Source: a virus
Taxonomy: Duplodnaviria; Heunggongvirae; Uroviricota; Caudoviricetes
Length of the DNA stretch: 35,017 nucleotides
IMG/VR virus record: IMGVR_UViG_2623620502_000007
Reading direction: 5' to 3' (one strand)
The translations under genes and the position numbers were made by a program. Of this stretch, positions 1,363-35,017 are shown one piece after another (the first letter of the stretch is position 1; each line of letters opens with the position of its first letter). A model generated the notes under the pieces. The model was given only the letters and a program-made list of their open reading frames with translations. It had not been told where the DNA came from and made no database searches.

Positions 1363-1506
1363 TTAATTTCGATTATTTTTCCCGGATGGAAAATTCTTAG
1401 AAACCGATCACATACAGCTGTATTTATTAAGGTTATCATCCGTTTCGCTGAAAAACATAACCCATAAAATGCTAGCTGTACCAGGAACCACCTCCTTAGC
1501 CTGTGT

Positions 1507-1533
1507 AATCTCCCTTACACGGGCTTATTTTTT
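1507..1533. repeat. att core, left junction (27 bp, exact copy of 34514-34540)
   Basis: aatctcccttacacgggcttatttttt occurs identically at both prophage ends; it is the reverse complement of the P2 att core as I recall it. Confidence 0.85.
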
Positions 1534-7046: not shown

Positions 7047-8237
7047 TTAATTGCTGTTAACCGAGGTGACCAGATTTGCCAGGTATTTATCGGTAATACG
7101 CTGGCGCAGGGTCAGGTTTTCGAGAGGAGGCACCGGTGTATAGTCGTAGTCGATATACAGTTTTCCGGCCTTGAGGGTTTCCGCATCGTTGGATTCTTCG
7201 CTGAACCAGCAGGTCGCATCCACGATATAGCCGTTTGTTTTCAGCTCTCGGAATTTGGCATTGATGCCATCAACGATGTCGCGAATCAGCGTTGCGGTGA
7301 TGGGCTTGTCCACCGCCCACATGTGCGCCTCAGCCATCGTGTCGGCCAGCACCTGCGCGGTGCGGGTGTAGTTTTCAAAGAGGAACAGCGGGTCATCAGA
7401 GCAGGTACGGTTACCCCAGAAGCGGAAACCGTCACGGCGAATCAGCGTTGTGACGCCTGACTCATTCAGCAGGTCAGCATCGGTGCCGGACTCCTGCAAA
7501 TCCCAGAATACAGATGCGCTGATGCCGGTAACACCGTTCACCCCAACGTTGGACAGTGTTTTATGCCAGCCCTGCTCCTGGTCGATTTTAGCGCGCAGAC
7601 CCAGCGCACGGGCGGTGGCATACGCGGTGGCGGTGGTACTGGTGACCGTATCCCATGCGAGGAAATCCGGCCAGATGACCATCAGCTCACGCTGGCTGAA
7701 ATTCTGGCGGTAGGCTTTCACCTCGGAAATGGTCTTACAGCCCCATGCGCTGATATATCCGAAAGCGCGCAGCTTCTGACAGACGGATGCCAGTGCAACA
7801 GCCACCTCTTTGGTGTCCAGTCCCGGCACACCGAGAATACGCGGTTTAACACCGGTTACCGACTCTGCCGCCAGCAGGGCTTTCAGTCCGGTGTACTGAC
7901 CGTTTTCGTCGGTGGTGCCGATGATATTGGAAACGGTCTGCGCAAGTTTCGTTTCTTCGTCGTCGCCGGTGCCGTCCTCCACGCGCACAACAACGGTAAC
8001 CGGTTTTGACTGGTCGGCGATGGCCTGCAACGATGCCGCCAGCGTGCCTTTTTTACCGGCCTTTGCAATTGCGCTCTGCACATTGGTAATCAGCACCGGT
8101 TTATTGATGGGGAAGGTTTCCGCATCCGCATCGCTGGCCGTGCAGACCATGCCGACAATGGCTGTGGATACGGTGGAAATGACGCGGGTGCCGTCGTTAA
8201 TCTCCAGCACCTGCACGCCGTGATGATAGTCACTCAT
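7047..8237 (-). CDS. FI: Contractile tail sheath protein gpFI (396 aa)
   Basis: Length identical to P2 FI; N-terminus MSDYHHGVQVLEINDGTRVISTVSTAIVGMV; first gene of the FI-FII-E-T-U-D operon. Confidence 0.9.
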   Translation of the reverse strand: MSDYHHGVQVLEINDGTRVISTVSTAIVGMVCTASDADAETFPINKPVLITNVQSAIAKAGKKGTLAASLQAIADQSKPVTVVVRVEDGTGDDEETKLAQTVSNIIGTTDENGQYTGLKALLAAESVTGVKPRILGVPGLDTKEVAVALASVCQKLRAFGYISAWGCKTISEVKAYRQNFSQRELMVIWPDFLAWDTVTSTTATAYATARALGLRAKIDQEQGWHKTLSNVGVNGVTGISASVFWDLQESGTDADLLNESGVTTLIRRDGFRFWGNRTCSDDPLFLFENYTRTAQVLADTMAEAHMWAVDKPITATLIRDIVDGINAKFRELKTNGYIVDATCWFSEESNDAETLKAGKLYIDYDYTPVPPLENLTLRQRITDKYLANLVTSVNSN

Positions 8238-8330
8238 CCGTTTAACTCCGTGGTTAATGGGTGCAACTATTTTCCGTTGGGTAGTACATGAGACGCTATT
8301 TGACCTGGCTGGTCAGTGGATGAAACAACA

Positions 8331-8360
8331 GATAAAGAAAAGGCGGGCAATCTGCCCGCC
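8331..8360 (-). terminator. Rho-independent terminator on the minus strand, between the cargo gene and FI
   Basis: Hairpin ggcgggca-atc-tgcccgcc (8342-8360) followed on the minus strand by TTTTCTTTATC. Confidence 0.6.
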
Positions 8361-8592
8361 TGTCCTGATTTGTACACACTCATTTTCCGACTGACAATTT
8401 ACATAGCCAAAATGCTATCAAATCTGACAGCCTGTTTTGAGCGAAGAGGAACCTGAGATTGTGGTATGCTAATTTATGGGGAGCAGGTCAATTGTATTAG
8501 TTATCTTTTTGCCTTTCTTTATCCCATTTCTTTACAGTGGTCTGATACCACTCTTCACGTGTTCGTTATTCCTCTGCTCTGTCACTTGAATT

Positions 8593-9189
8593 TTAGTTGT
8601 CTGTTTTAATTTTTTTGCTTCCCTGGGAAATCGGCCTCCAGTCTTCTCTAATATTTTTCATCTGCTCAGCTATCTGTGTCATTGGACTCCTTGCACCTAA
8701 GTAGCTAACCCCCTCGAAAGAAGCCATATCATAAGAATACTCATTCCGCTCTCTTTCAGTTGAGCCCGGCTGTTTAGACCAGCTAATACTAACAGAATAA
8801 ACTTGATCTTTAATCTGGTCATACTTACAAAGACTGCTGTTGAGGGAATGGCCGTTTTTCAATACGCTAACCTTGCTAAATGGTATACCTTTATTTTTTC
8901 TATGTTCTGCATTAACCAGTGGGGGATTAAATCCGACTTCAATATCATAGGCTGGGGCATTTCCGGTATTAGCAATATTGATATCAAAATAAAAAGCAGC
9001 CCAAGAATTTGGTTCAAGAGTCACAACGACATGAGGTTGAACTGATGCGTCAACCATCCTTTTTGTCTCGTCTGCTAATAGCCTTGTTACTCTCCACAAG
9101 AAAAATGTAGCAACTGCTGTTAGCAATGCTGCCAAAGCGGAGATAAGTGTACTTACTGTGTTTATATGCTCTGCGATAAATTCGATCAT
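8593..9189 (-). CDS. Hypothetical membrane-anchored protein (198 aa), cargo in the FI/G slot
   Basis: AT-rich ORF with a Shine-Dalgarno-like AAGGA upstream; predicted single N-terminal transmembrane helix (VSTLISALAALLTAVATFFLW) followed by a roughly 165-aa soluble domain; no family recognised by eye. Confidence 0.6.
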   Translation of the reverse strand: MIEFIAEHINTVSTLISALAALLTAVATFFLWRVTRLLADETKRMVDASVQPHVVVTLEPNSWAAFYFDINIANTGNAPAYDIEVGFNPPLVNAEHRKNKGIPFSKVSVLKNGHSLNSSLCKYDQIKDQVYSVSISWSKQPGSTERERNEYSYDMASFEGVSYLGARSPMTQIAEQMKNIREDWRPISQGSKKIKTDN

Positions 9190-9641
9190 GAGTTGTCCTT
9201 GGGGGCGTACTAATTGTTTTCAATACTAAAATAGCGCCGGGCTTGAAAAATTGCACACTTATGGTTCGATTTACCTCAACAGTTAAGGCTTCAACTTCCC
9301 CCATGCACCTCACCCAGCCCAAGACTGTATGAGGTCTGACAAAGAACTTCCTGACACTTGAAAACGAGGCAACGGCTAGGGTTTCTCGTAGGGCAAGGAT
9401 TGAATACGAAGCCTGTATATTGCTCCGCGAACGCTGCTGAGGGCAGTTTAAATGTTGGGCGTTTATGTAGCCTTTCACTCACCAGCATGAGTTCAATGTC
9501 TGTGAGTTACCGACAACAATATAAAGGGGGTGGCATCATCATATATCCAAGCTAGAGTCAAATCCTCTAACTGGTTTTATGATCAGTGTCAATTGTTTGA
9601 TTATTGAACGTTTACGAAGCAGCACGGGAGCCATATAACTA

Positions 9642-9860
9642 ATGGGCAGGTATAAGCCTGTATCACGAGGAATCAGTAAAATGGCTGATGATAAGACCAA
9701 AATCGGTACCCCTGACAATGATTTAATAAGTATCAAACAGGATTACGAGAGACGTGATTGGGCTGAAAAGTTTGGAGTTAGCGAGACCAAACTTGTTCAA
9801 GCCGTACAGGCTGTAGGTCATTCGGCTAAGAAAGTACAGGCATGGCTTAAAGACCATTAA
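9642..9860 (+). CDS. Small hypothetical protein (72 aa; 59 aa if started at the internal ATG 9681), possibly DUF3606-like
   Basis: ORF in the AT-rich cargo region; the internal ATG at 9681 has the better RBS (GAGG about 10 nt upstream); the motif DYERRDWAEKFGVSETKLVQAVQAVG resembles DUF3606-type small proteins from memory. Confidence 0.5.
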   Translation: MGRYKPVSRGISKMADDKTKIGTPDNDLISIKQDYERRDWAEKFGVSETKLVQAVQAVGHSAKKVQAWLKDH

Positions 9861-9912
9861 TATATGAGCGCCTTTCTAGGCGCTTTTTTCTTTGTCCTTT
9901 GGGGGATGATTT

Positions 9913-10191
9913 ATGGCTAATAATTTATTTATTACTTACGACCTCATTAAAACGAAAGATTATGCGGCTGTGTATGATGCAATTAAATCTTTAGGAAATT
10001 GGGCTTTAACAACTGAATCGAACTGGTATGTTAACTGTAGTTACTCTGCCGAGGATGCAGCCAAAATTGTGAGGGCGATCATGGATAGTGATGATAAGCT
10101 TATTGTTGTAGACGCAACCAATAACTCAGCTTATTGGTACAATCTCTCAGATGAAGTTAGTAACCAAATTCTGACTGAGTGGAACAAGTAA
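9913..10191 (+). CDS. Small hypothetical protein (92 aa), cargo in the FI/G slot
   Basis: Strong RBS (GGGGGA 7-9 nt upstream of ATG), AT-rich codon usage, followed by a hairpin terminator; no family recognised. Confidence 0.6.
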   Translation: MANNLFITYDLIKTKDYAAVYDAIKSLGNWALTTESNWYVNCSYSAEDAAKIVRAIMDSDDKLIVVDATNNSAYWYNLSDEVSNQILTEWNK

Positions 10192-10196
10192 TTAAA

Positions 10197-10220
10197 GGGG
10201 GTGGGTAGCCCCCTTTAATT
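10197..10220 (+). terminator. Weak rho-independent terminator after the 92-aa ORF
   Basis: ggggg-tgggtag-ccccc stem-loop followed by tttaatt. Confidence 0.5.
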
Positions 10221-10411
10221 CAGAAACCATCATGATTGAAACATTAAATATACTGGGTTAATTCTTTCATCCTTGCTCCCTTGCTATATGTCCTGAAAGC
10301 GTCCTTTTTAGCCTTCTGCTCAGTATGTCCGGTAATGGCACAGAGCGGACTGCCAGATTAGGCTTTACTCTGTGCCATAGATATGTAATCTCACACCAGA
10401 GCTTATACAAC

Positions 10412-10939
10412 TTATTGCGGCATTTCCGGCCATTCAGGATTTGCAGGATCCACACGACTGACCAGAACGCTGTAGCGTTCCCAAGCCTCCAGCCGTGTGC
10501 GCTCCTCCTCTGTTGCCATGTTCAGCCTGACAGCGCGCTCCAGCGGCAAAATCACGGATTCAGCATCTGCAAGAAGTCTGGCTTTCCGATTTTCTGCCTG
10601 CTGCTGCAATTCCTCTGCCGTATAAATGCGTTTAATCACTTTGCCGTCCTTAAACATCCAGTTCCCTGAAATGTCCGCCCGTCGGTTAGCAGTAATATCC
10701 GCCACTTCAACCACACTTAATCCATCCGGTCTGATAGCTGTCACATCCTTTTCCACATAGCGGATGATATTATCTTTGTCGTACGCTATTTTTATCGTGT
10801 CATCAGCAAAATACTTTTGTTCTTCGTACCAGTTCTTACCATCTTCTGTAAAAAACCAGACGACATCAAAGTTCTTTGTCAATTGATATTGTTCAACCGT
10901 TTTTGGATTACCTGCCGTTATATTTATCAAATGCTGCAT
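10412..10939 (-). CDS. G: Tail fibre assembly chaperone gpG (175 aa)
   Basis: Length equals P2 G; immediately downstream of H with a 3-nt gap. Confidence 0.85.
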
Positions 10940-22019: not shown

Positions 22020-23792
22020 ATGACCATCACCACAGACACCACTCTTTTACACGACCCGCGTCGTCAGGCGGCGCTGCTGTACTGGCAGGGGTTTTCCGTG
22101 CCGCAGATTGCCGCCATGTTGCAGATGAAACGCCCGACGGTGCAGAGCTGGAAACAGCGCGACGGCTGGGACAGCGTTGCCCCCATCAGCCGTGTCGAAA
22201 TGAGTCTGGAAGCGCGACTGACCCAGCTCATCATCAAACCGCAGAAAACCGGCGGTGACTTCAAGGAAATTGACCTGCTGGGACGCCAGATTGAACGACT
22301 GGCACGGGTAAACCGCTACAGTCAGACCGGCAACGAGGCAGACCTTAATCCGAACGTCGCTAACCGCAACAAAGGCGGGCGTCGCAAACCGAAAAAGAAT
22401 TTTTTCAGTGACGAGGCCATCGAAAAGCTGGAGCAGATTTTCTTTGAGCAGTCTTTCGAATATCAGTTGCACTGGTATCGCGCCGGGCTTGAGCACCGCA
22501 TCCGCGATATCCTGAAATCCCGCCAGATTGGCGCGACGTTTTATTTTTCCCGCGAGGCGCTGCTGCGCGCCCTGAAAACCGGTCATAACCAGATTTTTCT
22601 GTCGGCCAGTAAAACGCAGGCGTATGTGTTCCGCGAATACATCATCGCCTTTGCCCGTCTGGTTGACGTTGACCTGACCGGTGACCCGATTGTCCTGGGC
22701 AATAACGGCGCAAAACTGATTTTTCTCGGCACCAACTCCAACACCGCACAGAGCCATAACGGCGACCTGTACGTCGACGAGATTTTCTGGATCCCGAATT
22801 TTCAGGTACTGCGTAAGGTGGCATCAGGTATGGCCTCACAGAGTCACCTGCGTTCGACCTATTTCTCCACCCCGTCCACGCTGGCGCACGACGCCTACCC
22901 GTTCTGGTCAGGTGAACTGTTCAACCGGGGACGCGCCAGCGCCGCCGAACGCGTGGAAATCGACGTCAGTCATAACGCCCTTGCCGGTGGGCTTCTCTGT
23001 GCGGACGGCCAGTGGCGGCAGATTGTCACCATTGAGGACGCCCTGAAAGGTGGCTGCACGCTGTTCGACATTGAGCAGCTCAAACGTGAAAACAGCGCCG
23101 ACGATTTTAAAAACCTGTTCATGTGTGAATTTGTTGACGACAAGGCGTCGGTGTTCCCGTTCGAGGAGCTGCAACGCTGCATGGTCGACACGCTGGAAGA
23201 ATGGGAAGACTATGCGCCGTTTGCCGCGAATCCGTTCGGCTCCCGCCCGGTATGGATTGGTTACGACCCGTCACACCGTGGCGACAGCGCCGGATGCGTG
23301 GTGCTGGCACCGCCGGTGGTGGCCGGTGGCAAATTCAGAATACTTGAGCGTCACCAGTGGAAAGGCATGGACTTTGCCACTCAGGCGGAATCCATCCGCA
23401 AACTCACCGAAAAATACAACGTCGAATACATCGGTATTGATGCCACCGGCCTCGGTGTCGGCGTGTTCCAGCTCGTGCGCTCGTTCTATCCCGCCGCGCG
23501 CGATATCCGCTACACGCCGGAAATGAAAACCGCAATGGTGCTCAAGGCAAAAGACGTTATCCGCCGTGGCTGTCTGGAATATGACGTCAGCGCCACCGAC
23601 ATCACCAGCTCGTTTATGGCTATCCGCAAGACCATGACCAGCAGCGGACGCAGCGCCACCTATGAGGCCAGCCGCAGCGAGGAAGCCAGCCACGCCGACC
23701 TCGCCTGGGCAACCATGCACGCCCTGTTAAATGAGCCACTCACCGCCGGTATCAGCACTCCGCTGACATCCACCATTCTGGAGTTTTACTGA
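22020..23792 (+). CDS. P: Terminase large (ATPase) subunit gpP (590 aa)
   Basis: Start taken at MTITTDTTLLHDPRRQ to give 590 aa as in P2 P; the six-frame ORF begins 10 codons upstream. Confidence 0.88.
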   Translation: MTITTDTTLLHDPRRQAALLYWQGFSVPQIAAMLQMKRPTVQSWKQRDGWDSVAPISRVEMSLEARLTQLIIKPQKTGGDFKEIDLLGRQIERLARVNRYSQTGNEADLNPNVANRNKGGRRKPKKNFFSDEAIEKLEQIFFEQSFEYQLHWYRAGLEHRIRDILKSRQIGATFYFSREALLRALKTGHNQIFLSASKTQAYVFREYIIAFARLVDVDLTGDPIVLGNNGAKLIFLGTNSNTAQSHNGDLYVDEIFWIPNFQVLRKVASGMASQSHLRSTYFSTPSTLAHDAYPFWSGELFNRGRASAAERVEIDVSHNALAGGLLCADGQWRQIVTIEDALKGGCTLFDIEQLKRENSADDFKNLFMCEFVDDKASVFPFEELQRCMVDTLEEWEDYAPFAANPFGSRPVWIGYDPSHRGDSAGCVVLAPPVVAGGKFRILERHQWKGMDFATQAESIRKLTEKYNVEYIGIDATGLGVGVFQLVRSFYPAARDIRYTPEMKTAMVLKAKDVIRRGCLEYDVSATDITSSFMAIRKTMTSSGRSATYEASRSEEASHADLAWATMHALLNEPLTAGISTPLTSTILEFY

Positions 23793-24826
23793 TGAGCAAG
23801 AAAAAAGGGAAAACACCGCAACCTGAGGCAAAAAAAATGACCGCCAGCGCCCCGAAAATGGAGGCTTTCACCTTTGGTGAGCCGGTGCCGGTACTCGACC
23901 GCCGTGACATTCTGGATTACGTCGAGTGCATCAGTAACGGCAGATGGTATGAGCCGCCGATCAGCTTTACCGGTCTGGCGAAAAGCCTGCGTGCTGCCGT
24001 GCATCACAGCTCACCGATTTACGTTAAACGCAATATTCTGGCCTCGACATTTATCCCGCATCCGTGGCTTTCGCAACAGGATTTCAGCCGCTTTGTGCTG
24101 GATTTTCTGGTGTTCGGTAATGCGTTTCTGGAAAAGCGTTACAGCACCACCGGTAAGGTCATCAGACTGGAAACCTCACCGGCAAAATATACCCGCCGTG
24201 GCGTGGAGGAGGATGTTTACTGGTGGGTGCCGTCCTTCAACGAGCCGACAGCCTTCACGCCCGGCTCCGTGTTTCACCTGCTGGAGCCGGATATCAATCA
24301 GGAGCTGTACGGCCTGCCGGAATATCTCAGCGCCCTTAATTCTGCCTGGCTGAATGAATCAGCCACACTGTTCCGCCGCAAGTATTACGAAAACGGCGCT
24401 CATGCCGGATACATCATGTACGTCACTGATGCCGTGCAGGATCGCAACGATATCGAAATGCTTCGCGAAAACATGGTGAAGTCGAAAGGCCGCAACAACT
24501 TTAAAAATCTGTTTCTCTATGCCCCACAGGGGAAAGCCGACGGCATCAAAATTATCCCGCTCAGTGAAGTGGCAACGAAGGACGATTTTTTTAATATCAA
24601 AAAAGCCAGCGCCGCTGACCTGCTGGACGCGCACCGCATCCCCTTTCAGTTGATGGGCGGCAAGCCGGAGAACGTCGGGTCGCTGGGTGATATTGAGAAA
24701 GTGGCAAAGGTCTTTGTCCGCAATGAGCTTATCCCGCTACAGGACAGGATCCGCGAGATAAACGGCTGGCTCGGTCAGGAGGTCATCCGCTTTAAAAACT
24801 ACTCACTGGACACTGACAACGGCTGA
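23792..24826 (+). CDS. Q: Portal protein gpQ (344 aa)
   Basis: Length equals P2 Q; start overlaps the P stop (ATGA); reads toward cos. Confidence 0.9.
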   Translation: MSKKKGKTPQPEAKKMTASAPKMEAFTFGEPVPVLDRRDILDYVECISNGRWYEPPISFTGLAKSLRAAVHHSSPIYVKRNILASTFIPHPWLSQQDFSRFVLDFLVFGNAFLEKRYSTTGKVIRLETSPAKYTRRGVEEDVYWWVPSFNEPTAFTPGSVFHLLEPDINQELYGLPEYLSALNSAWLNESATLFRRKYYENGAHAGYIMYVTDAVQDRNDIEMLRENMVKSKGRNNFKNLFLYAPQGKADGIKIIPLSEVATKDDFFNIKKASAADLLDAHRIPFQLMGGKPENVGSLGDIEKVAKVFVRNELIPLQDRIREINGWLGQEVIRFKNYSLDTDNG

Positions 24827-24993: not shown

Positions 24994-25012
24994 GTGCTTT
25001 CCCCGCCTCGCC
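24994..25012. other. cos site (19-nt cohesive-end sequence)
   Basis: gtgctttccccgcctcgcc is the reverse complement of GGCGAGGCGGGGAAAGCAC, which I recall as the P2 cohesive end; it lies about 170 nt beyond Q, as expected. Confidence 0.75.
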
Positions 25013-25063
25013 CGCCCGCTTCGTGGGGCAGTTTTAATGCATATGAATGTAAATTTAGAAACC

Positions 25064-25140: not shown

Positions 25141-26202
25141 CTACTTAGCCTTGATAACTGGATGAGCCCGGTCATGGCCCCCTCCCAAGAACTTTGAAAA
25201 AATCACCTTATCATTACTCACTGGTTTACTACCATACACACTATCGTAATGAAAAAATACTTGTGGTTGGTTTGGTATACGAATGAAACCATAAGCTAGT
25301 CTAGTATCACCTATTACTCCTTCTTCTCTATTACAAACCGGATAGCATAATTGACCACATAATGACACGAGCTCATCTGCAGTGGGGCGTTTAGAAGGGT
25401 CTAGATTTAAACATTTTTCAATTATATCTATAATTTCATTTGCCAGCGGAGCAAACTGCTTATTTGACTTAATAAAATCAGGATATTGAGTATGCTTTCC
25501 AGATAAGATGTTCGGAATAGCCATATACCCTAATCCAAAAGGATACTCTCCCGTGAGGATTCTGAACATCATCGCACCTAATGCCCAGACATCAGATGGT
25601 TTTGAAACTTGCCCCTGACTTTGTATAATTTCCGGGGCCATATATGGCAATGCCCCCATAGCTGTTTGAGATGAAGTAATCGATCCTTGCCCATTCTTTG
25701 CGGCCTCATCAATTTCATCACCGGCCATTTTTGAAATTCCAAAATCGGTGATTTTAACACCTGTAGCACTAACTCCTCCAATAACCATTATGTTAGAAGG
25801 TTTGAGGTCTCGATGTATTACATCCACATGATGGGAAGCCGAAAGAGCCTTCGCTAAGTTATGAAATATCTTTGCAGTCAAGTAAGGATCAACACTTGTA
25901 TAGCTACTCAACAATGCTTTATCCAGATCTACTCCATCGATAAATTCCTCCGTTAAAAATTCACGTCCATCTTCGGCAAAATAATCTAATGTTTTAGCGA
26001 CGTTAGGATGGTTGACCCTAGATGCTAAAATAGCACTTCTATGGAATCGTTTTTCAGCAGACTTATTTTTAGGGGTCTTAAGAGCAACTTGCCTATTTAA
26101 TATCTTATCATTCGCAAGGTAAACCTTTTGCATCCCCCCCTCACCAATTTCGCTGATAATAGTATAACGATTTATATTAGTCCCAGGAACCAACTCAATC
26201 AT
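25141..26202 (-). CDS. Hanks-type Ser/Thr protein kinase with C-terminal OB-fold-like extension (353 aa), third gene of the cargo operon
   Basis: Kinase motifs IGEGGMQKV (Gly-rich loop), VALK, HRDLKPSN, DFG, APE, DVWALG; start ATG overlaps the upstream kinase stop (ATGA) with GGAGG 7 nt upstream; AT-rich. Confidence 0.85.
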   Translation of the reverse strand: MIELVPGTNINRYTIISEIGEGGMQKVYLANDKILNRQVALKTPKNKSAEKRFHRSAILASRVNHPNVAKTLDYFAEDGREFLTEEFIDGVDLDKALLSSYTSVDPYLTAKIFHNLAKALSASHHVDVIHRDLKPSNIMVIGGVSATGVKITDFGISKMAGDEIDEAAKNGQGSITSSQTAMGALPYMAPEIIQSQGQVSKPSDVWALGAMMFRILTGEYPFGLGYMAIPNILSGKHTQYPDFIKSNKQFAPLANEIIDIIEKCLNLDPSKRPTADELVSLCGQLCYPVCNREEGVIGDTRLAYGFIRIPNQPQVFFHYDSVYGSKPVSNDKVIFSKFLGGGHDRAHPVIKAK

Positions 26203-27263
26203 AACACAACCTCCGGATGAGAAAGATCAAATGTGATAAATATACGTTTTGTAGTTGTTCTTCCGGCAGGGCCAAGTATTATCACGCATGAGCTAGGCAA
26301 TAAATTTCGTTTTTTAGCCCTAATATTATTAACATAGACATCCCCTGATATATCTGAAATATAAAACTCGGAACCAGAGTAAGTAATTTCCACACTACCC
26401 ACCCCTGGATTGTTATAAGACTCCGTCTTGTGTGTAGCTGAGAGCACTACTGGTTTTTTATTATCAGATATAAGCAATGCTCGATGAGAGTTGTGCAATA
26501 ATATTTTTTTCAAAACATCGCAAACATCTTTCATAGGGGGCCTAGCTTGAGGATTTGCATCAAGACATTTGAAAAACAATTCCTTTACAATACTTGGTAA
26601 TTTTATTACCGACAAATCAAATGGATTAGATGTCAGAATCTTAGGGTAACGGGTCAATTCATCTGGGACAGGGGTTTTAGCTAAGCACATTGCTGTAACA
26701 GCAAAGGCATATGTATCAATTGCTTTAGTAAAGTCTACGTTCTGCAAATACAACTCAGGAGCTGCAAAAATTGGGGTACCTTTAAACCCAATTGTTTTTG
26801 CATTATCTATTTTTCTTGACAAGCCAAAATCATATATTTTTACAAGCCCTTCTTTATCAATCTTCATATTCCCAGGCTTTATATCACGATGAATGATATC
26901 ATGTTCATGTATCTCGCAAATACCTGATGCTATTTGCCACAAAATCTTAATAAGCTCCCCTACTGTAGTAATTTTATTATTAACTTCATTCAACGATGGA
27001 CCATCGATAAACTCTTCAACAATTGCAAGATTGCCTTCAGCATAATTAATCACATCAAACAGTTCAACAACATGTTTTGAACGTAGTGTCATTAGAGCAG
27101 CCAACTCGTCTTTCATTCGCTCTGTATCTGATGGATCATTTATAGTCTTTATTGCAACAAATCTCTCAAGATGAGAATCGCGGCATTTGATTACACTACC
27201 AAATCCCCCTAAATCAGGATCCCCAACCACTTGATATCTTTCTGGGAGAAAATCACTCATCAT
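26199..27263 (-). CDS. Hanks-type Ser/Thr protein kinase with uncharacterised C-terminal domain (about 354 aa), second gene of the cargo operon
   Basis: Motifs LGGFGSV, VAIK, HRDIKPGN, DFG, APE; start taken at the ATG preceded by AAGGAG with 6-nt spacing (the six-frame ORF begins 2 codons upstream at 27269); overlaps the phosphatase stop. Confidence 0.85.
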   Translation of the reverse strand: MMSDFLPERYQVVGDPDLGGFGSVIKCRDSHLERFVAIKTINDPSDTERMKDELAALMTLRSKHVVELFDVINYAEGNLAIVEEFIDGPSLNEVNNKITTVGELIKILWQIASGICEIHEHDIIHRDIKPGNMKIDKEGLVKIYDFGLSRKIDNAKTIGFKGTPIFAAPELYLQNVDFTKAIDTYAFAVTAMCLAKTPVPDELTRYPKILTSNPFDLSVIKLPSIVKELFFKCLDANPQARPPMKDVCDVLKKILLHNSHRALLISDNKKPVVLSATHKTESYNNPGVGSVEITYSGSEFYISDISGDVYVNNIRAKKRNLLPSSCVIILGPAGRTTTKRIFITFDLSHPEVVL

Positions 27264-28449
27264 CACCATCTCCTTTTATTGAATTCCTTTCAAGGAATGA
27301 CATGTCAAGCTGTGAAATACAATCAAGTCTATTATTTTTATTTAACCCATTTTTTTTCTCATCTAATTCCTGAAGAGATTTATTCTTATTTTTTGTTCTT
27401 GCCTTTCTTTTTGTTGTTGCTTTGTTTATATCGCTAACGACTGAATCAGTATTTTTTTTGTTTGACACTTTTCTAACACCAGAAGTGCCTTTATTATTTT
27501 TTTCAAGCTCAACTGTATTTAAAGGCTCTAATGAAGATGACTTATTCGGCACGCTAATGACTTTTAATTCACCAAATGGATCCCAGAGATTTATTACATC
27601 TCCAGATGAAACATCTAACTCTTTTAGAGTATTAAAAAGGTCTATAACTGCTATACTTGCATTGTCGAAACCACCAAACCAACTAGCAAGATCAATAACC
27701 CGCCTAGAATAAACACCTAGATTCGCCGAGTGCACATATAACTTTCTTAAATTATCCTTACCGATAGAATGCGCACCATCAGAACTTAAAATAATTACGC
27801 CACTCTCCAAGGCTTGGATATGATGAAAGTGTATTTCCAATGTGCCATCTATGCCTATAAATTGTACTAATTCACCACCAAAGCGTAAATCAATATCCTG
27901 TGGATCCATATTTAGATGATTATTATACTTTTTGGCTAAGGCAACTAAAGTATCGTCCTCGCTCAACTGAGTAGTTTCTTCATGCGAGACATAATAAATA
28001 CGGCTATCACCTACATTTACTGCGGTAATATTATCATCATCTTCTAAAGCTATCGCTGATAATGTCGCCCCTCCATTACCCTTATATACATTCAAAACAG
28101 AATCATTCGCTTGTAGCACAGCTTTCTCAAGACAAGAACGTATTGGTAAATGAGAATTTCTTATTATTTCAGTAAAAAATGTAGATAAAGTTAAAGATGC
28201 TGCATTGGCACCCCCCTCCATCCCCCCCATACCATCGGCTAACGCAACAACAACGATATCTTTAGCTTTGCTACTTGGGCGGAATTTCAATATAGCAACC
28301 CTATCTTGGTTTTCCTTCCGTACCAACCCAATGTCAGTAGCTATAGCCACTGGTAAGGTTGAGACACGACGCACTGAGGATGCTATATTTTTTCGATGTA
28401 GCCATCCGTGAATATGCTCATGAAGGATTTCGTAAGAATCACGGCTCAC
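27253..28449 (-). CDS. PP2C (PPM) family Ser/Thr phosphatase with Lys/Asn-rich C-terminal tail (398 aa), first gene of the cargo operon
   Basis: PP2C signature motifs ENQDR, ALADGMGG, VGDSR, SSDGAH, DNAS; GTG start 4 nt after AGGAGG (an in-frame ATG one base upstream runs straight into TGA); AT-rich. Confidence 0.82.
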   Translation of the reverse strand: MSRDSYEILHEHIHGWLHRKNIASSVRRVSTLPVAIATDIGLVRKENQDRVAILKFRPSSKAKDIVVVALADGMGGMEGGANAASLTLSTFFTEIIRNSHLPIRSCLEKAVLQANDSVLNVYKGNGGATLSAIALEDDDNITAVNVGDSRIYYVSHEETTQLSEDDTLVALAKKYNNHLNMDPQDIDLRFGGELVQFIGIDGTLEIHFHHIQALESGVIILSSDGAHSIGKDNLRKLYVHSANLGVYSRRVIDLASWFGGFDNASIAVIDLFNTLKELDVSSGDVINLWDPFGELKVISVPNKSSSLEPLNTVELEKNNKGTSGVRKVSNKKNTDSVVSDINKATTKRKARTKNKNKSLQELDEKKNGLNKNNRLDCISQLDMSFLERNSIKGDGDDE

Positions 28450-28579
28450 ATTACCTCCTAGTTACTTTGATAGACCAAAGAGTTAGCTTACAAAAATAGA
28501 GCGGAAATGCCTAGTGTTTCAATCGATTTTTGTGAGAATTGGTTATTTAATAACTATATAAAAACATTGGAATTTACCA

Positions 28580-30862
28580 CTAATTCCAGTTAGCAAAAAG
28601 CCCCCATTCCTCTTGCGAGCGCTCATTAAAACTATAATATTTTCCTTCGTAAAAGAGTGTAGCTCCGCGAGCTAGAGCAAGAAGCAGCCACCTTTCCACC
28701 GCAACCCCCTGCTGAGCAAGGTCTACGCGGATACGGGTAATTTGCATTCGTTCTGACCGGGTCAGTCTGGCCGATGGTGCAATTTCATGCGGTTTTAACG
28801 GGCTTCCATTTCTTTGCTGACGGTTTGGCGTTCTCAGGTCGTGTTTTAATGCGCCCCTGAGCGCCCTCACGACCTCCGGTTCATTCCATTCAATAACACC
28901 GTCATCAACCAGATTAAGCACTGCTGCGGCGTGCTCAGAAGGAGTGGGAGCCGGTAACGAAGTATCACCGCTGGTGAGCTTTCCACAGTTATTGACAGGA
29001 CTCCGAGGCGCGGCGATGCCGCTTTTTAAAGTCAAAGGCTCAACGACCGGCACTTTCGGCACAATGCGCCAGTCCGTCGTTCTGGTGATATGAATATGAC
29101 GCGCGCCGAGATGCGGCGCGTAAATGCCGACCACTCTCTCGACTTCTTCCTCGTACTCGTTAACGTCATCCGACGGGCTACGGGCAACCCTGACAGTCTG
29201 ACAATCGCGCGGAACATTTGCCCCACCCTGCGCGCTGATATACAACGCAAAATCACCACTGTCTGCGGCGGCGCGTGCAGCCTCGACGCGTTCGTCAAAC
29301 TCATCAGCAATGCTGACGCCACGAGGCAATTTGCGTAGTTCACGGTAAGCCCCCATTGTCGGCAGACCAACCGTTTTAAATTGCGGGATGCGCCACGTTG
29401 ACGCCCATGCGGTAACAGCCGCGGCAGTATCTTTAAGCGGCCTGCCGGTATCGTTATCGAGCTGACCATCCAGTGCATAGCCGTCGATATTTTTTGAGAT
29501 GTATTTAGCGATATACCCCGCAGCACCACCCCGGTTAAGGTGTTTTGCCTGAAAACGGTTTCGCGCGGCTCCTCTTTCGTCGCCATCCTCTTTGAGCGCA
29601 TAGCGACGCATGATTTCGATAATCTGGTTACGCTGGCGTGGATTACAAAAAAGCATCATATGCCAGTGCGGCGTTCCGTCGTGGTGTGGCTCGACGACAC
29701 GCAAACCGTAGACCTGTAAATCATTATCCTTGAATGCCGTGCGCATCAGGCTCCAGATACGGCAGAGATAACGCTGCGCATCCTTTGGATTAAATGCCTC
29801 ATCATTCCAGCCGTGATTAAGCTGGACGGTTTTACTTTCGCCTTTTCCGACCTGACGTGTCGGGTGATACTTTGACGGCGTGGTCAGCGTGATAAACATC
29901 CCCACATCACCCTCTGCGGCGGCGTAACGCTCAATACCGGCAATGGTGTTCATCAGCTCCATCCGGCGAATTTCAGGATTAGAAATACTGCCCATCACCT
30001 TACTGATAAGGTCGATGCGCTCGCCGGTTTCCCTGTTTTCAAGGTCACACGATTTAAGAAATTCCAGATTTGCCTGGCGGCGTGCACGCACATCACGAAT
30101 GGCATGTTTACTGGCATAAGGAGAACGGTCTTTATTGACTTCCCCGACAGCTATCAGTAACGCCTCATGCCAGCGCATACGCTGGCCTTTAAGCTGATGA
30201 GTCCACCACTCATCGTTAAACAGACGGGCAATGGCAGAATATGCCTGCCTCGTGGTCATCTGCCCTTTACGGTATTTTTTCCAGTAGAGAGGGGAAATAT
30301 TGAAAGCACGTGCAGCGCCAGCAACATGACCATAGAGGTGAGCCTGCGCCTCATCCGTAAACAGCGATTCTTTTTCGCCATGCGCATCCACCCAGGCATC
30401 GCTGAGTTCCTCATACATCATGAAAAGCTGCGATGAGATACGGGCAGCAAACTTTTTCAGCTCCTTGTCATTCATTCCCGGCAGGCGCGCATAGTGGTCA
30501 CGCTCTGCCAGAAACAGTAACGACGCGTCGGTGTTCATTTCATGGCGCTGATTCACACGCTCAATGCGCGGCCATAAACGACGCTGAAAAGTGGATGTGA
30601 GGAAATAAAACCCGTGCACCGGGCTTTTATTGCGCCGGATGTAGTCATAGCGTGAAGTAAACAGCGAGCGCAAAAAGTAAGGCAGGCGGTTAATCGTGGA
30701 TAAAACACCTTGCACCTGACGCATCTCGTCACGTGTAAGGGGTCTTTCGCGCCCGACGGCCTCGCGTGGCGCGTTCCATGCATAAGCACCGGTAAACGTC
30801 TTACCGGTGCCTGCGGCAAATGCTGACGGAGGGACAAAACGCCCGGAGGCTTTAACGGCCAT
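28580..30862 (-). CDS. A: Replication initiator gpA (rolling-circle nickase, about 760 aa)
   Basis: Start taken at MAVKASGRFVPPSAF; large protein with conserved HxH (PHWHMML) and Tyr motifs; the six-frame ORF extends 14 codons upstream to 30904, so the start is uncertain. Confidence 0.85.
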   Translation of the reverse strand: MAVKASGRFVPPSAFAAGTGKTFTGAYAWNAPREAVGRERPLTRDEMRQVQGVLSTINRLPYFLRSLFTSRYDYIRRNKSPVHGFYFLTSTFQRRLWPRIERVNQRHEMNTDASLLFLAERDHYARLPGMNDKELKKFAARISSQLFMMYEELSDAWVDAHGEKESLFTDEAQAHLYGHVAGAARAFNISPLYWKKYRKGQMTTRQAYSAIARLFNDEWWTHQLKGQRMRWHEALLIAVGEVNKDRSPYASKHAIRDVRARRQANLEFLKSCDLENRETGERIDLISKVMGSISNPEIRRMELMNTIAGIERYAAAEGDVGMFITLTTPSKYHPTRQVGKGESKTVQLNHGWNDEAFNPKDAQRYLCRIWSLMRTAFKDNDLQVYGLRVVEPHHDGTPHWHMMLFCNPRQRNQIIEIMRRYALKEDGDERGAARNRFQAKHLNRGGAAGYIAKYISKNIDGYALDGQLDNDTGRPLKDTAAAVTAWASTWRIPQFKTVGLPTMGAYRELRKLPRGVSIADEFDERVEAARAAADSGDFALYISAQGGANVPRDCQTVRVARSPSDDVNEYEEEVERVVGIYAPHLGARHIHITRTTDWRIVPKVPVVEPLTLKSGIAAPRSPVNNCGKLTSGDTSLPAPTPSEHAAAVLNLVDDGVIEWNEPEVVRALRGALKHDLRTPNRQQRNGSPLKPHEIAPSARLTRSERMQITRIRVDLAQQGVAVERWLLLALARGATLFYEGKYYSFNERSQEEWGLFANWN

Positions 30863-31127
30863 ATGAGCCAAAAACCTCTGAACAACGCTTGCTGAGTTGC
30901 TCAACCTGCGCGTTTAAATCAGCAAAAGACTTTGCGCTTCCGGTCAGAATATCGTGATGCATCAGGCCGGAAACGAGCTGGCTTAATTTCGGGTAATAAC
31001 CAACCACCGACAGCCATTCCTGACCGGCGTTTTTACCGCTTTCCGCTCTCTTTTTCTCGTGGAGAATAAACTGAAAGCTGTCACTGGTAACGACATAACG
31101 TTCGCCAATTTCAATACGAATACTCAT
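30852..31127 (-). CDS. Hypothetical early-region protein (91 aa)
   Basis: Sits between the TraR-like gene and A in the early operon, the position of the small orf80-83 genes of P2; overlaps neighbours at both ends. Confidence 0.6.
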   Translation of the reverse strand: MSIRIEIGERYVVTSDSFQFILHEKKRAESGKNAGQEWLSVVGYYPKLSQLVSGLMHHDILTGSAKSFADLNAQVEQLSKRCSEVFGSYGR

Positions 31128-33420: not shown

Positions 33421-34434
33421 ATGGCAATCAAAAAACTCGATGATGGTCGATATGAAGTGGACATCCGCCCTACTGGACGTAATGGAAAACGCATCCGTAG
33501 GAAGTTTGATAAGAAAAGCGAAGCTGTCGCTTTCGAGAAATACACGTTGTACAACCACCACAATAAAGAATGGCTATCAAAACCAACAGACAAGCGACGT
33601 CTGTCGGAGCTGACACAGATCTGGTGGGATTTAAAGGGTAAACACGAAGAGCATGGGAAATCTAATCTTGGAAAAATTGAAATCTTCACAAAAATAACGA
33701 ATGACCCATGCGCATTTCAAATTACGAAATCGCTTATCAGCCAGTACTGCGCCACCCGAAGAAGTCAGGGTATTAAACCTTCGAGTATCAATCGTGATTT
33801 AACATGTATTAGCGGCATGTTTACAGCCCTGATTGAAGCGGAGTTATTCTTTGGTGAGCACCCTATCAGAGGGACAAAAAGGCTTAAGGAGGAAAAACCA
33901 GACACAGGCTATCTCACGCAGGAAGAAATTGCCTTACTGCTTGCTGCTCTTGACGGCGACAACAAAAAGATTGCGATTCTTTGCCTGAGTACTGGAGCAC
34001 GTTGGGGAGAAGCAGCTCGTTTGAAAGCAGAAAATATCATCCATAACCGCGTCACGTTTGTTAAAACGAAAACAAACAAACCACGCACCGTCCCGATCTC
34101 AGAGGCTGTTGCCAAAATGATCGCGGATAACAAACGAGGTTTTTTATTCCCTGATGCTGATTACCCTCGCTTCAGACGAACAATGAAAGCAATAAAACCG
34201 GATTTGCCAATGGGGCAAGCCACACATGCACTAAGGCACAGCTTTGCCACTCATTTCATGATTAATGGAGGAAGTATTATCACGCTACAACGGATACTAG
34301 GTCACACGCGGATTGAGCAAACTATGGTTTACGCTCATTTTGCGCCAGAGTACCTTCAGGACGCCATTTCTCTTAATCCGCTAAGAGGTGGTACTGAAGC
34401 CGAGAGTGTCCACATAGTGTCCACAGTAGAGTAA
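33421..34434 (+). CDS. int: Tyrosine integrase (337 aa)
   Basis: Length equals P2 Int; C-terminal catalytic motifs HALRHSFATHF and LGHTRIEQTMVYAH; GGAGGG RBS; att core 80 nt downstream. Confidence 0.92.
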   Translation: MAIKKLDDGRYEVDIRPTGRNGKRIRRKFDKKSEAVAFEKYTLYNHHNKEWLSKPTDKRRLSELTQIWWDLKGKHEEHGKSNLGKIEIFTKITNDPCAFQITKSLISQYCATRRSQGIKPSSINRDLTCISGMFTALIEAELFFGEHPIRGTKRLKEEKPDTGYLTQEEIALLLAALDGDNKKIAILCLSTGARWGEAARLKAENIIHNRVTFVKTKTNKPRTVPISEAVAKMIADNKRGFLFPDADYPRFRRTMKAIKPDLPMGQATHALRHSFATHFMINGGSIITLQRILGHTRIEQTMVYAHFAPEYLQDAISLNPLRGGTEAESVHIVSTVE

Positions 34435-34699: not shown

Positions 34700-35017
34700 T
34701 CACTCTCCACATTTGAATGTCAGACGAGCGACGCCATGTAATCCTGCACCTTCTGTCTTCAGGTCAACTATCTGCATTTTTTTGCCCTGAGTAACACAGA
34801 AATGGGCTGCATCATTTTTTACTATATTTTCTGCACCAGATATTCTGCCCCTGGCTAAAGAAGCTTCGGCTTCGGTGTAGTATTGGTTATCGAGTTTACG
34901 CTGAATATTACTTTTATATGCAAGACCAAATTTACCGATACTTGTCTCATCATTATGCACAGCACAACCAGACACAATAAAAATACTAATTAATGATATA
35001 GCAGCTATCTTTTTCAT
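34700..35017 (-). CDS. yegR: Small lipoprotein (105 aa), probably YegR
   Basis: Signal peptide with lipobox (MKKIAAISLISIFIVSGC); start codon exactly at the window edge; neighbourhood with yegQ fits the E. coli yegQ-yegR locus. Confidence 0.6.
   Translation of the reverse strand: MKKIAAISLISIFIVSGCAVHNDETSIGKFGLAYKSNIQRKLDNQYYTEAEASLARGRISGAENIVKNDAAHFCVTQGKKMQIVDLKTEGAGLHGVARLTFKCGE

Follow-up and report, generated by a model that had tools for sequence, protein, structure and literature searches.

A rare AT-rich operon in the tin/old slot of a P2-like prophage is most probably the KKP-EC039 allele of a known antiphage toxin-antitoxin module

We have identified, with high confidence, a three-gene operon of a P2-like E. 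coli prophage as a KKP module carried as cargo between gpA and gpQ; its allele is most probably KKP-EC039, that of E. coli 15EC039. KKP (kinase-kinase-phosphatase) is a three-component toxin-antitoxin and antiphage system based on phosphorylation (Guo et al. 2024, Nat Commun 15:7244, PMC11341870). The operon lies in a window of 35,017 nucleotides, the whole stretch of DNA that was analysed, in which the following features were located.

23792 to 24826, plus strand: P2 portal gene Q (gpQ), which borders the slot downstream, on the far side of cos
24994 to 25012, minus strand: exact match (0.01 expected by chance) to GGCGAGGCGGGGAAAGCAC, which we take to be the P2 cos cohesive-end sequence and to identify this position as cos
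25141 to 26202, minus strand: pfkA, Hanks Ser/Thr kinase, 353 aa
25144 to 25329, minus strand: cold-shock domain (CSD) at the C-terminus of PfkA, residues ~292-353, from profile and predicted structure
26199 to 27269, minus strand: pfkB, Hanks Ser/Thr kinase, 356 aa in its longest form
26202 to 26498, minus strand: FHA-fold domain at the C-terminus of PfkB, residues 258-356, from predicted structure
27253 to 28449, minus strand: pfpC, PP2C Ser/Thr phosphatase (the antitoxin), 398 aa, GTG start
28450 to 28579, minus strand: 130-nt intergenic spacer that separates the stop of gpA from the start of pfpC
28580 to 30904, minus strand: P2 gene A (gpA), replication endonuclease, which borders the slot upstream

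Six published KKP-EC039 primers have gene-specific parts of 18 to 27 nt, and every one of these parts has an exact match at the boundaries of the three ORFs; the comparison covers the primer-binding ends only (~114 nt), and the interior may differ. The forward primers of pfpC-EC039 and KKP-EC039 match exactly at 28427-28446, the pfpC reverse primer matches 27253-27273, and the KKP-EC039 reverse primer is exact at 25141-25167. None of the six matches a second E. coli allele. KKP-EC039 and the present operon share gene order, gene sizes, a PP2C phosphatase with two Hanks kinases, FHA-fold and GFI-bearing CSD C-termini, and a P2 prophage site between gpA and the portal gene; over the ends compared no difference can be demonstrated, save that the FHA domain is not detectable by Pfam here. 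The published search for the family used the gene order 'PP2C, Pkinase and Pkinase' as its criterion, with each gene of 900-1300 bp (PMC11341870). The present genes are adjacent and co-oriented in this order, and the ORF calls give 1197 bp for pfpC, 1062-1071 bp for pfkB and 1062 bp for pfkA. An earlier note on this DNA had implied that the phosphatase-first arrangement might be novel. This did not hold up: published KKP modules have exactly this architecture, with the phosphatase gene in first place and the same two C-terminal domains (PMC11341870), and the KKP-EC039 primers match.

The pfpC gene begins at a GTG (28449-28447) that follows a Shine-Dalgarno sequence, AGGAGG (28459-28454), with 4 nt between them. 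It overlaps pfkB by 8, 11 or 17 nt, depending on the choice among four in-frame pfkB starts. The real start is probably the ATG at 27263 or 27260, giving a protein of 354 or 353 aa; the RefSeq protein has 354 aa and the published primer implies 353 aa. The pfkB-pfkA junction is an ATGA overlap (26199-26202), and the three overlapping ORFs are probably translationally coupled. GC content is 0.374 in the operon vs 0.53 across the remaining prophage. Since the P2 early operon is repressed, expression in a lysogen would need a promoter of the operon's own in the 130-nt spacer. A promoter scan of the spacer returned one weak sigma-70-like site (28522-28493), a putative promoter, and fewer matches to the sigma-70 consensus than shuffled sequence gave, and we claim no promoter. 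An Rfam scan gave no match within the operon.

All three proteins have significant profile matches. PfpC matches PP2C_2 (E 4e-6, over the Pfam gathering score) and, over residues 38-269, the Stp1-type PP2C of NCBIfam (E 2.5e-32); phrog_17277 matches it over its entire length. It consists of a catalytic domain (~38-269) and a K/N/S-rich tail (270-398). The motifs DGMGG (72-76), GDSR (147-150), SDG (223-225) and FDN (261-263) are present, and the metal-binding Asp motifs are intact. PfkB and PfkA match Pkinase (Pfam; E 1.1e-39 and 9.2e-47, respectively) and are 27% identical to each other (E 1e-18). The PfkB kinase domain (residues ~21-250) carries GGFGSV, VAIK (38-41), HRDIKPGN (127-134), DFG (147-149) and APE (170-172), and that of PfkA (residues ~13-279) carries GEGGMQKV, VALK (39-42), HRDLKPSN (130-137), DFG (153-155) and APE (189-191), so HRD and DFG are intact in both. 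The earlier note had called these features from the letters alone: the PP2C motifs DGMGG, GDSR, SDG and DN, the GTG behind AGGAGG, the motifs of two paralogous Hanks kinases, the overlaps at both junctions including ATGA, and the strong AT bias of a minus-strand operon. Each was located, and the Pkinase and PP2C profile check that it had proposed gave the Pfam and NCBIfam matches above. Its estimate of roughly 100 aa for each kinase C-terminal domain stood for PfkB (~99 aa, FHA fold) and failed for PfkA (~65-70 aa, CSD).

The C-termini of both kinases are weak or silent in Pfam, and profile searches and structure prediction were therefore used. For PfkA, the C-terminal profile matches the CSD of Unr at 2e-8 and CspB at 1e-4, and the predicted model (pLDDT 89.6) aligns to cold-shock proteins in Foldseek with TM 0.70-0.77 (E 2.4e-5). 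The isolated C-terminus gave a sub-threshold CSD match in a single-sequence Pfam search (E 0.01). A GFI motif lies at residues 305-307 (window 25282-25290) in the context YGFI. PfkA thus ends in a CSD with the GFI/GFA motif expected of the last kinase of KKP. The C-terminus of PfkB is assigned as FHA at the level of the predicted fold only, and at that level we count it as the FHA domain of KKP. No Pfam match to FHA (PF00498) appeared in PfkB, in the 120 best homologues of this protein or in the isolated C-terminal fragment, and a search of the C-terminal sequence profile against PDB sequences found no FHA. The ribosomal S15/S19 matches that this PDB search returned were at chance level and were rejected. 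By eye, the canonical GR...SxxH...NG signature is not apparent; in the domain alignment the invariant residues include G34, N57 and R85. In view of the silent Pfam searches and the lack of an apparent signature, the domain may serve for dimerisation independently of phosphorylation and not as a pThr reader.

The operon sits directly downstream of gene A and on the same strand, between gpA and cos/portal of a complete P2-like prophage. The gene A end at 28580 (RefSeq calls a gpA of 760 aa at 28580-30862), the exact cos at 24994-25012 and the portal gene at 23792-24826 agree with the earlier placement of the operon in the slot where P2 carries tin and old. The cos site is the far edge of this cargo slot, 128 nt past the pfkA stop. 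P2 reference genomes match window 25000-25041, ~42 nt adjoining cos, and nothing else of the slot. Tin acts by poisoning the ssDNA-binding protein of T-even phages, and Old is a nuclease of the ATPase/TOPRIM kind. P2 tin/old and the present operon share a locus between gene A and cos and a role as phage-exclusion cargo, but they have no sequence relation and wholly different mechanisms. The gpA-portal context, including the Phage_GPA neighbour, was found in all ten contexts listed. The gpA-gpQ slot is a documented defence hotspot (PMC9122126). Published KKP modules have FHA and CSD domains; those in P2 prophages lie next to Phage_GPA and Phage_portal, and ~90% of family members are carried by prophages or other mobile elements (PMC11341870).

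In the published mechanism, worked out on KKP-EC039 and relatives, PfkA and PfkB jointly form the toxic component, for which the FHA and CSD domains are required; these domains mediate the PfkA-PfkB interaction. The kinases have many host proteins as substrates, TopA, InfB, RpoD and FtsZ among them, and arrest growth; PfpC undoes this toxicity through dephosphorylation (PMC11341870). When T4 infects the cell, PfpC is bound by the helicase loader Gp59, which reduces its activity, an inhibition that the authors call 'modest' in vitro; kinase activity then prevails and phage production is blocked (PMC11341870). The earlier note's model, in which the kinases are the effectors of antiphage defence, and possibly of prophage control, and the phosphatase is their antidote, is essentially this mechanism. 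Kinase toxicity, phosphatase rescue and phage protection would carry over from KKP-EC039 to the present operon by way of the exact primer matches.

A different emphasis is that KKP in a P2 context mainly regulates lysogeny or interactions among mobile elements (P2, P4 satellites, other prophages), with defence secondary. The route would be phosphorylation of H-NS, StpA or a similar nucleoid protein, just as MvaU is phosphorylated by the Pf6 KKP. The founding member, Pf6 KKP of P. aeruginosa MPAO1, has a shown role in MvaU phosphorylation and Pf lysogeny; a dual function, in defence and regulation, is published for this module and was suggested by its authors for other prophages as well (PMC11341870). 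It shares the three-gene architecture, and the C-termini encoded by its primers, DLSHPEINL (PfkB) and RAHPVMILDE (PfkA), match the family-wide motifs FDLSHPEVVL and RAHPVIKAK found here (conserved DLSHPE..L and RAHPV). The position directly downstream of the replication gene likewise fits a regulatory role. The host element of Pf6 KKP is a filamentous phage, and the module's MvaU and lysogeny role is not known to extend to P2 of E. coli. With KKP-EC039, the E. coli allele tested against phage T4, only defence was shown (PMC11341870). The slot is a recognised defence hotspot, and no sequence feature bears on H-NS targeting. We consider a mainly regulatory role unlikely; it is compatible with the KKP defence explanation and does not exclude it. 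There is likewise a small chance that KKP, besides blocking T4-like phages, sets spontaneous P2 activation or P2-P4 helper-satellite interplay, which would proceed by phosphorylation of H-NS-family or other nucleoid proteins in parallel to the control of MvaU in Pf6.

The KKP module is rare, AT-rich cargo of the tin/old slot. P2-like portal and cos sequences occur in 1667 of 5426 complete E. coli genomes; 18 of these 1667 have the KKP triplet, as expected of the variable cargo, rather than conserved core, that the earlier note had supposed. The present allele occurs in 4 genomes (0.07% of complete E. coli genomes). The second allele occurs in 14 complete genomes (e.g. strain S40, NZ_CP010235) and shares the slot, the P2-like backbone, the integration region (trhP/yegQ-ogrK) and the architecture, but is only 71% identical in nucleotide sequence. 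Protein identities between the two alleles are 66% for PfpC, 67.5% for PfkB and 81% for PfkA, PfpC being the most divergent component, with a tail only 48% identical. A match of the second allele to a 'plasmid' (NZ_CP083887.1) was rejected as a chromosomal fragment with asmA, dcd, udk and yegQ. The phage collection held no isolated phage carrying the operon; the best PfkA relative there, at 44% identity, is in Klebsiella phage Kp4865-2. Among the entries listed in Supplementary Data 2 of PMC11341870, which give IMG gene ids only, none matched the strains of the present allele (O145, 2010C-4557C2, Rahnella, others), and the MCM88485xx accessions were not among the cluster members listed; proteins MCM8848563-65 belong to the draft genome of 15EC039, JAMFTL000000000.

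These data bear on whether the operon could be a recombinant that has only gene termini in common with KKP-EC039, in which case its trigger specificity may differ. The comparison at the ends leaves room for this, and the two E. coli alleles differ most in PfpC, the published trigger-binding component, a divergence that marks it as a fast-evolving part. Against it, only two alleles were detectable in the 5426 complete genomes, the four copies of the present allele are 99.8-100% identical over the full 3.3 kb, and the assembly collection has 444 indexed blocks that contain the exact PfkA protein. We regard a recombinant as very improbable and retain the KKP-EC039 allele.

Other kinase-based systems were also considered. 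The earlier note had suggested a PADLOC check: v2.0.0 returned generic kinase-domain matches only (mad6, PD-T4-6, MkoA and PglW; E 1e-54 to 2e-59) and none for PfpC, and this version, having no KKP model, is uninformative on the identity of the system. MADS Mad6 and BREX PglW were rejected on NCBIfam scores (131.6 vs a cut-off of 460, and 65.8 vs 990) and on the absence of their multi-gene context, the neighbours being only gpA and the portal gene. PD-T4-6 is a stand-alone kinase gene; its HMM covers the kinase domain (E 1e-54), yet the kinase gene here comes third in an operon of three overlapping genes. The abortive-infection kinase Stk2 of staphylococci, PD-T4-6 of E. coli, Mad6 and PglW all use a Hanks-type Ser/Thr kinase domain in antiphage defence; they differ from KKP in that each is either a single kinase or belongs to an unrelated system of several genes, without a partner PP2C or an FHA/CSD kinase pair. 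That a housekeeping signalling pair of the Stk1/Stp1 (PknB/PstP) kind landed in the prophage by chance, with no defence role, is scarcely credible and already effectively refuted: the best NCBIfam matches are to the families of the Stp1 PP2C and of the Stk1 PASTA kinase, but these score well under the equivalog cut-offs (112.3 vs 230 and 180.9 vs 450) and span catalytic domains only, PASTA and transmembrane segments are absent, the rare AT-rich operon is flanked by gpA and the portal gene in every context listed, and the primers are those of a defence module that has been tested.

Although it is a defence system already characterised, the locus seems unexplained to automated pipelines because the RefSeq labels are generic ('PP2C family phosphatase', 'serine/threonine-protein kinase') and PADLOC v2.0.0 lacks a KKP model. 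Its value for annotation is small. What is new here is only the frequency estimate, the divergence of PfpC, mainly in its tail, and the assignment of FHA at the fold level.

The window carries a minus-strand operon of a phosphatase and two kinases, as the earlier note had described, and its three genes appear in the ORF list as follows:

27253-28449, minus strand: pfpC, 398 aa, GTG start
26199-27269, minus strand: pfkB, 356 aa in its longest form
25141-26202, minus strand: pfkA, 353 aa

Profile searches gave significant matches in all three proteins. In Pfam, PP2C_2 was matched by PfpC (E 4e-6, above the gathering score) and Pkinase by PfkB (E 1.1e-39) and PfkA (E 9.2e-47), and the NCBIfam model of Stp1-type PP2C covers PfpC residues 38-269 (E 2.5e-32). 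The motifs claimed in the earlier note were recovered in full: DGMGG, GDSR, SDG and (F)DN were each located at a defined position in PfpC, and the glycine loop, VAIK or VALK, HRDxKPxN, DFG and APE were located in both kinases, which are indeed paralogous, if distantly so (27% identical, E 1e-18). Its reading of the operon layout was also borne out, with AGGAGG placed 4 nt before the pfpC GTG, an ATGA overlap at the pfkB-pfkA junction, and a GC content of 0.374 vs 0.53 in the remaining prophage. The pfkB start region (27258-27273, minus strand) holds four in-frame candidates (ATG GTG ATG ATG) right after an AAGGAG inside the 3' end of pfpC, so that the pfpC-pfkB overlap is 8, 11 or 17 nt depending on the candidate chosen. 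PfkB is accordingly 356 aa as the longest ORF, 354 aa in RefSeq and 353 aa by a published primer, and the Shine-Dalgarno spacing favours the two shorter forms.

This arrangement is that of KKP, the kinase-kinase-phosphatase module, whose genes are encoded phosphatase-first despite the name (Guo et al. 2024, Nat Commun 15:7244, PMC11341870). KKP consists of the PP2C phosphatase pfpC, the kinase pfkB with a C-terminal FHA domain, and the kinase pfkA with a C-terminal cold-shock domain bearing a GFI/GFA motif (PMC11341870). The gene order and gene sizes of KKP are both found in the window's operon. PfkA closes with the sequence ...AYGFIRIP...VFFHYDSVYG...RAHPVIKAK, in which the GFI motif occupies residues 305-307. 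In PDB, a profile built from the PfkA C-termini of 26 homologues matched the Unr cold-shock domain (2e-8) and that of CspB (1e-4), and the AlphaFold2 model of this region (pLDDT 89.6, five strands) has a TM-score of 0.70-0.77 to cold-shock proteins. The Pfam FHA family was absent from PfkB and from its 120 best homologues, and a PfkB C-terminus profile gave no FHA match in PDB; Foldseek agreed with FHA at weaker significance. The FHA label of PfkB holds at the level of the predicted fold only, and by eye the canonical pThr-binding signature is not recognisable in this domain. Taking order, sizes, and cold-shock and FHA features together, every architectural feature of KKP is therefore present. 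The primer-encoded C-terminal peptides of the Pf6 KKP of P. aeruginosa MPAO1, DLSHPEINL (PfkB) and RAHPVMILDE (PfkA), likewise fit motifs conserved across both kinase families here.

The KKP of E. coli 15EC039 (KKP-EC039) has been expressed, and its cloning primers are listed in Supplementary Table 13 (PMC11341870). In their gene-specific parts, all six are exact matches to the window, placed at ORF boundaries.

Exact matches of KKP-EC039 primers in the window
28429-28446: pfp-EC039 forward primer
28427-28446: KKP-EC039 forward primer
27253-27273: pfp-EC039 reverse primer
27235-27260: pfkB-EC039 forward primer
26199-26220: pfkB-EC039 reverse primer
25141-25167: KKP-EC039 reverse primer

The GTG start of pfpC chosen in the earlier note is confirmed, because the pfp and KKP forward primers begin at codon 2, directly 3' of the GTG; the pfkB forward primer points to a PfkB of 353 aa that starts MSDFLPERY. 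None of the six primers matches the other E. coli allele (for example in strain S40, NZ_CP010235), with three mismatches allowed for two of them, and the four complete genomes bearing the window's allele differ in it by at most 0.2%. Since the primers match exactly and skip the other allele, and since variation is so low, the window's operon is very probably KKP-EC039 itself, as compared over the primer sites.

PfkA and PfkB are toxic only in combination. For toxicity, at least one of them must have its HRD or DFG motif, and both the cold-shock (GFI) and FHA domains, which also mediate the PfkA-PfkB interaction, are required (PMC11341870). Acting together, the two phosphorylate many proteins of the host, TopA, InfB, RpoD, FtsZ and MinC/E among them, and arrest division; the phosphatase activity of PfpC reverses the effect, and the authors class KKP as a type VII-like tripartite toxin-antitoxin system (PMC11341870). 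Escape mutants of T4 were mapped to Gp59, the helicase loader. Gp59 binds PfpC-EC039, reduces its activity modestly and sets off toxicity; the G32E mutant of Gp59 does not (PMC11341870). The Pf6 kinases also phosphorylate the H-NS-family protein MvaU, leading to control of Pf prophage activation (PMC11341870). The model of kinases as effectors and phosphatase as antidote in antiphage defence, proposed before from sequence, is supported by this published mechanism. The finding itself is not new: both the allele and the phage trigger are already known. The locus had looked unexplained because PHROGs places PfpC in an 'unknown function' family (phrog_17277; the kinases are in phrog_2361), PADLOC v2.0.0 contains no KKP model, and the RefSeq names of the three genes are generic.

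A complete P2-like prophage of E. coli VG12A2 (NZ_CP128592.1), integrated next to trhP (yegQ), the CyaR sRNA and ogrK, has the same sequence as the window. At the left junction, CyaR (RyeE; 1445-1530, plus strand; Rfam RF00112, 100.7 bits) is flanked by trhP/yegQ (1-1362) and ogrK, which places the prophage in the trhP-cyaR-ogrK site. The other E. coli KKP allele, of 71% nucleotide identity, also occurs in a P2-like prophage adjoining yegQ/trhP-ogrK. The right junction is disrupted by IS1, since an IS1A transposase gene (34876-35017) begins about 440 bp beyond the integrase gene (33421-34434), next to a partial hypothetical gene.

The operon does lie in the tin/old slot of P2, between gene A and cos/portal Q. 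Gene A, which encodes the replication endonuclease, has its stop at 28580, and pfpC starts 130 nt past it; the operon ends 128 nt short of an exact copy, at 24994-25012, of the P2 cohesive-end (cos) sequence; portal gene Q (23792-24826) lies beyond. P2 genomes share just about 42 nt with the window here, adjoining cos. The gpA-pfpC spacer holds one weak sigma-70-like site, such sites being overall fewer than in shuffled sequence, and a promoter must drive the operon in the lysogen.

Rousset et al. 2022 (PMC9122126) had identified gpA-gpQ as a defence hotspot: its 18,150 occurrences showed 1,650 gene arrangements. Guo et al. found more than 1200 KKP clusters, of which over 90% are carried by temperate phages, P2, P4 and Mu-like ones among these, and a figure legend names Phage_GPA and Phage_portal among the neighbour genes (PMC11341870). 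An identical PfkA protein is indexed in 444 blocks of the assembly collection; in 10 of the 10 contexts listed, its neighbours on the two sides are Phage_GPA and Phage_portal. A P2-like portal plus cos was present in 1,667 of 5,426 complete E. coli genomes, and a detectable phosphatase-kinase-kinase triplet in only 18; in this set of genomes the operon is rare cargo. Four of the 18 carry the window's allele (99.8-100% identity) and 14 carry the second allele in the same slot, at 71% nucleotide identity to the window's. The sole full-length PfkA-like match in the phage collection lies in the unannotated record of Klebsiella phage Kp4865-2 (OK490418.1, 8633-9664; 44% identity, 96% coverage).

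A second AT-rich cargo slot, with a GC content of about 0.42, occupies 8238-10411. It is flanked by the genes for the tail sheath (7047-8237) and for tail-fibre assembly (10412-10939), at the position of Z/fun in P2, and encodes:

8593-9189, minus strand: 198-aa protein with an N-terminal hydrophobic helix, phrog_11802
9642-9860, plus strand: DUF3606 protein
9913-10191, plus strand: 92-aa protein, phrog_1090

None of these three proteins gave a PADLOC match, and the slot possibly holds uncharacterised accessory or defence cargo.

In strain PSJ-22 (AP027634.1, 5387-8537) the same KKP allele stands in a decayed prophage, where a terminase fragment of 85 aa comes after the portal gene and runs straight into ogr and trhP; the intervening late genes are missing and gpA-KKP-portal is kept. 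Another record with this allele is rearranged too, with tail genes after the portal gene. These prophage remnants have kept the defence operon. A 43-kb record of strain NDM2 labelled 'plasmid unnamed3' (NZ_CP083887.1) has the other KKP allele in a P2-like prophage, together with the chromosomal genes asmA, dcd, udk, alkA and yegQ and many frameshifts. It duplicates a chromosomal region and has the appearance of an assembly artefact, not of a plasmid.

Comparison of the two E. coli alleles puts conservation highest in PfkA (81% amino acid identity), followed by PfkB (67.5%) and PfpC (66%). The most divergent part is the PfpC tail (residues 270-398; window 27256-27642, minus strand), which is 48% identical vs 74% for the PP2C domain. 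The tail is of low complexity, rich in K, N, S, L and D, and has no family match. That the module helps to control P2/P4 lysogeny, or that its FHA domain works in a non-canonical way, is of modest probability. The divergence of PfpC would fit diversifying pressure on the component published as trigger-binding.
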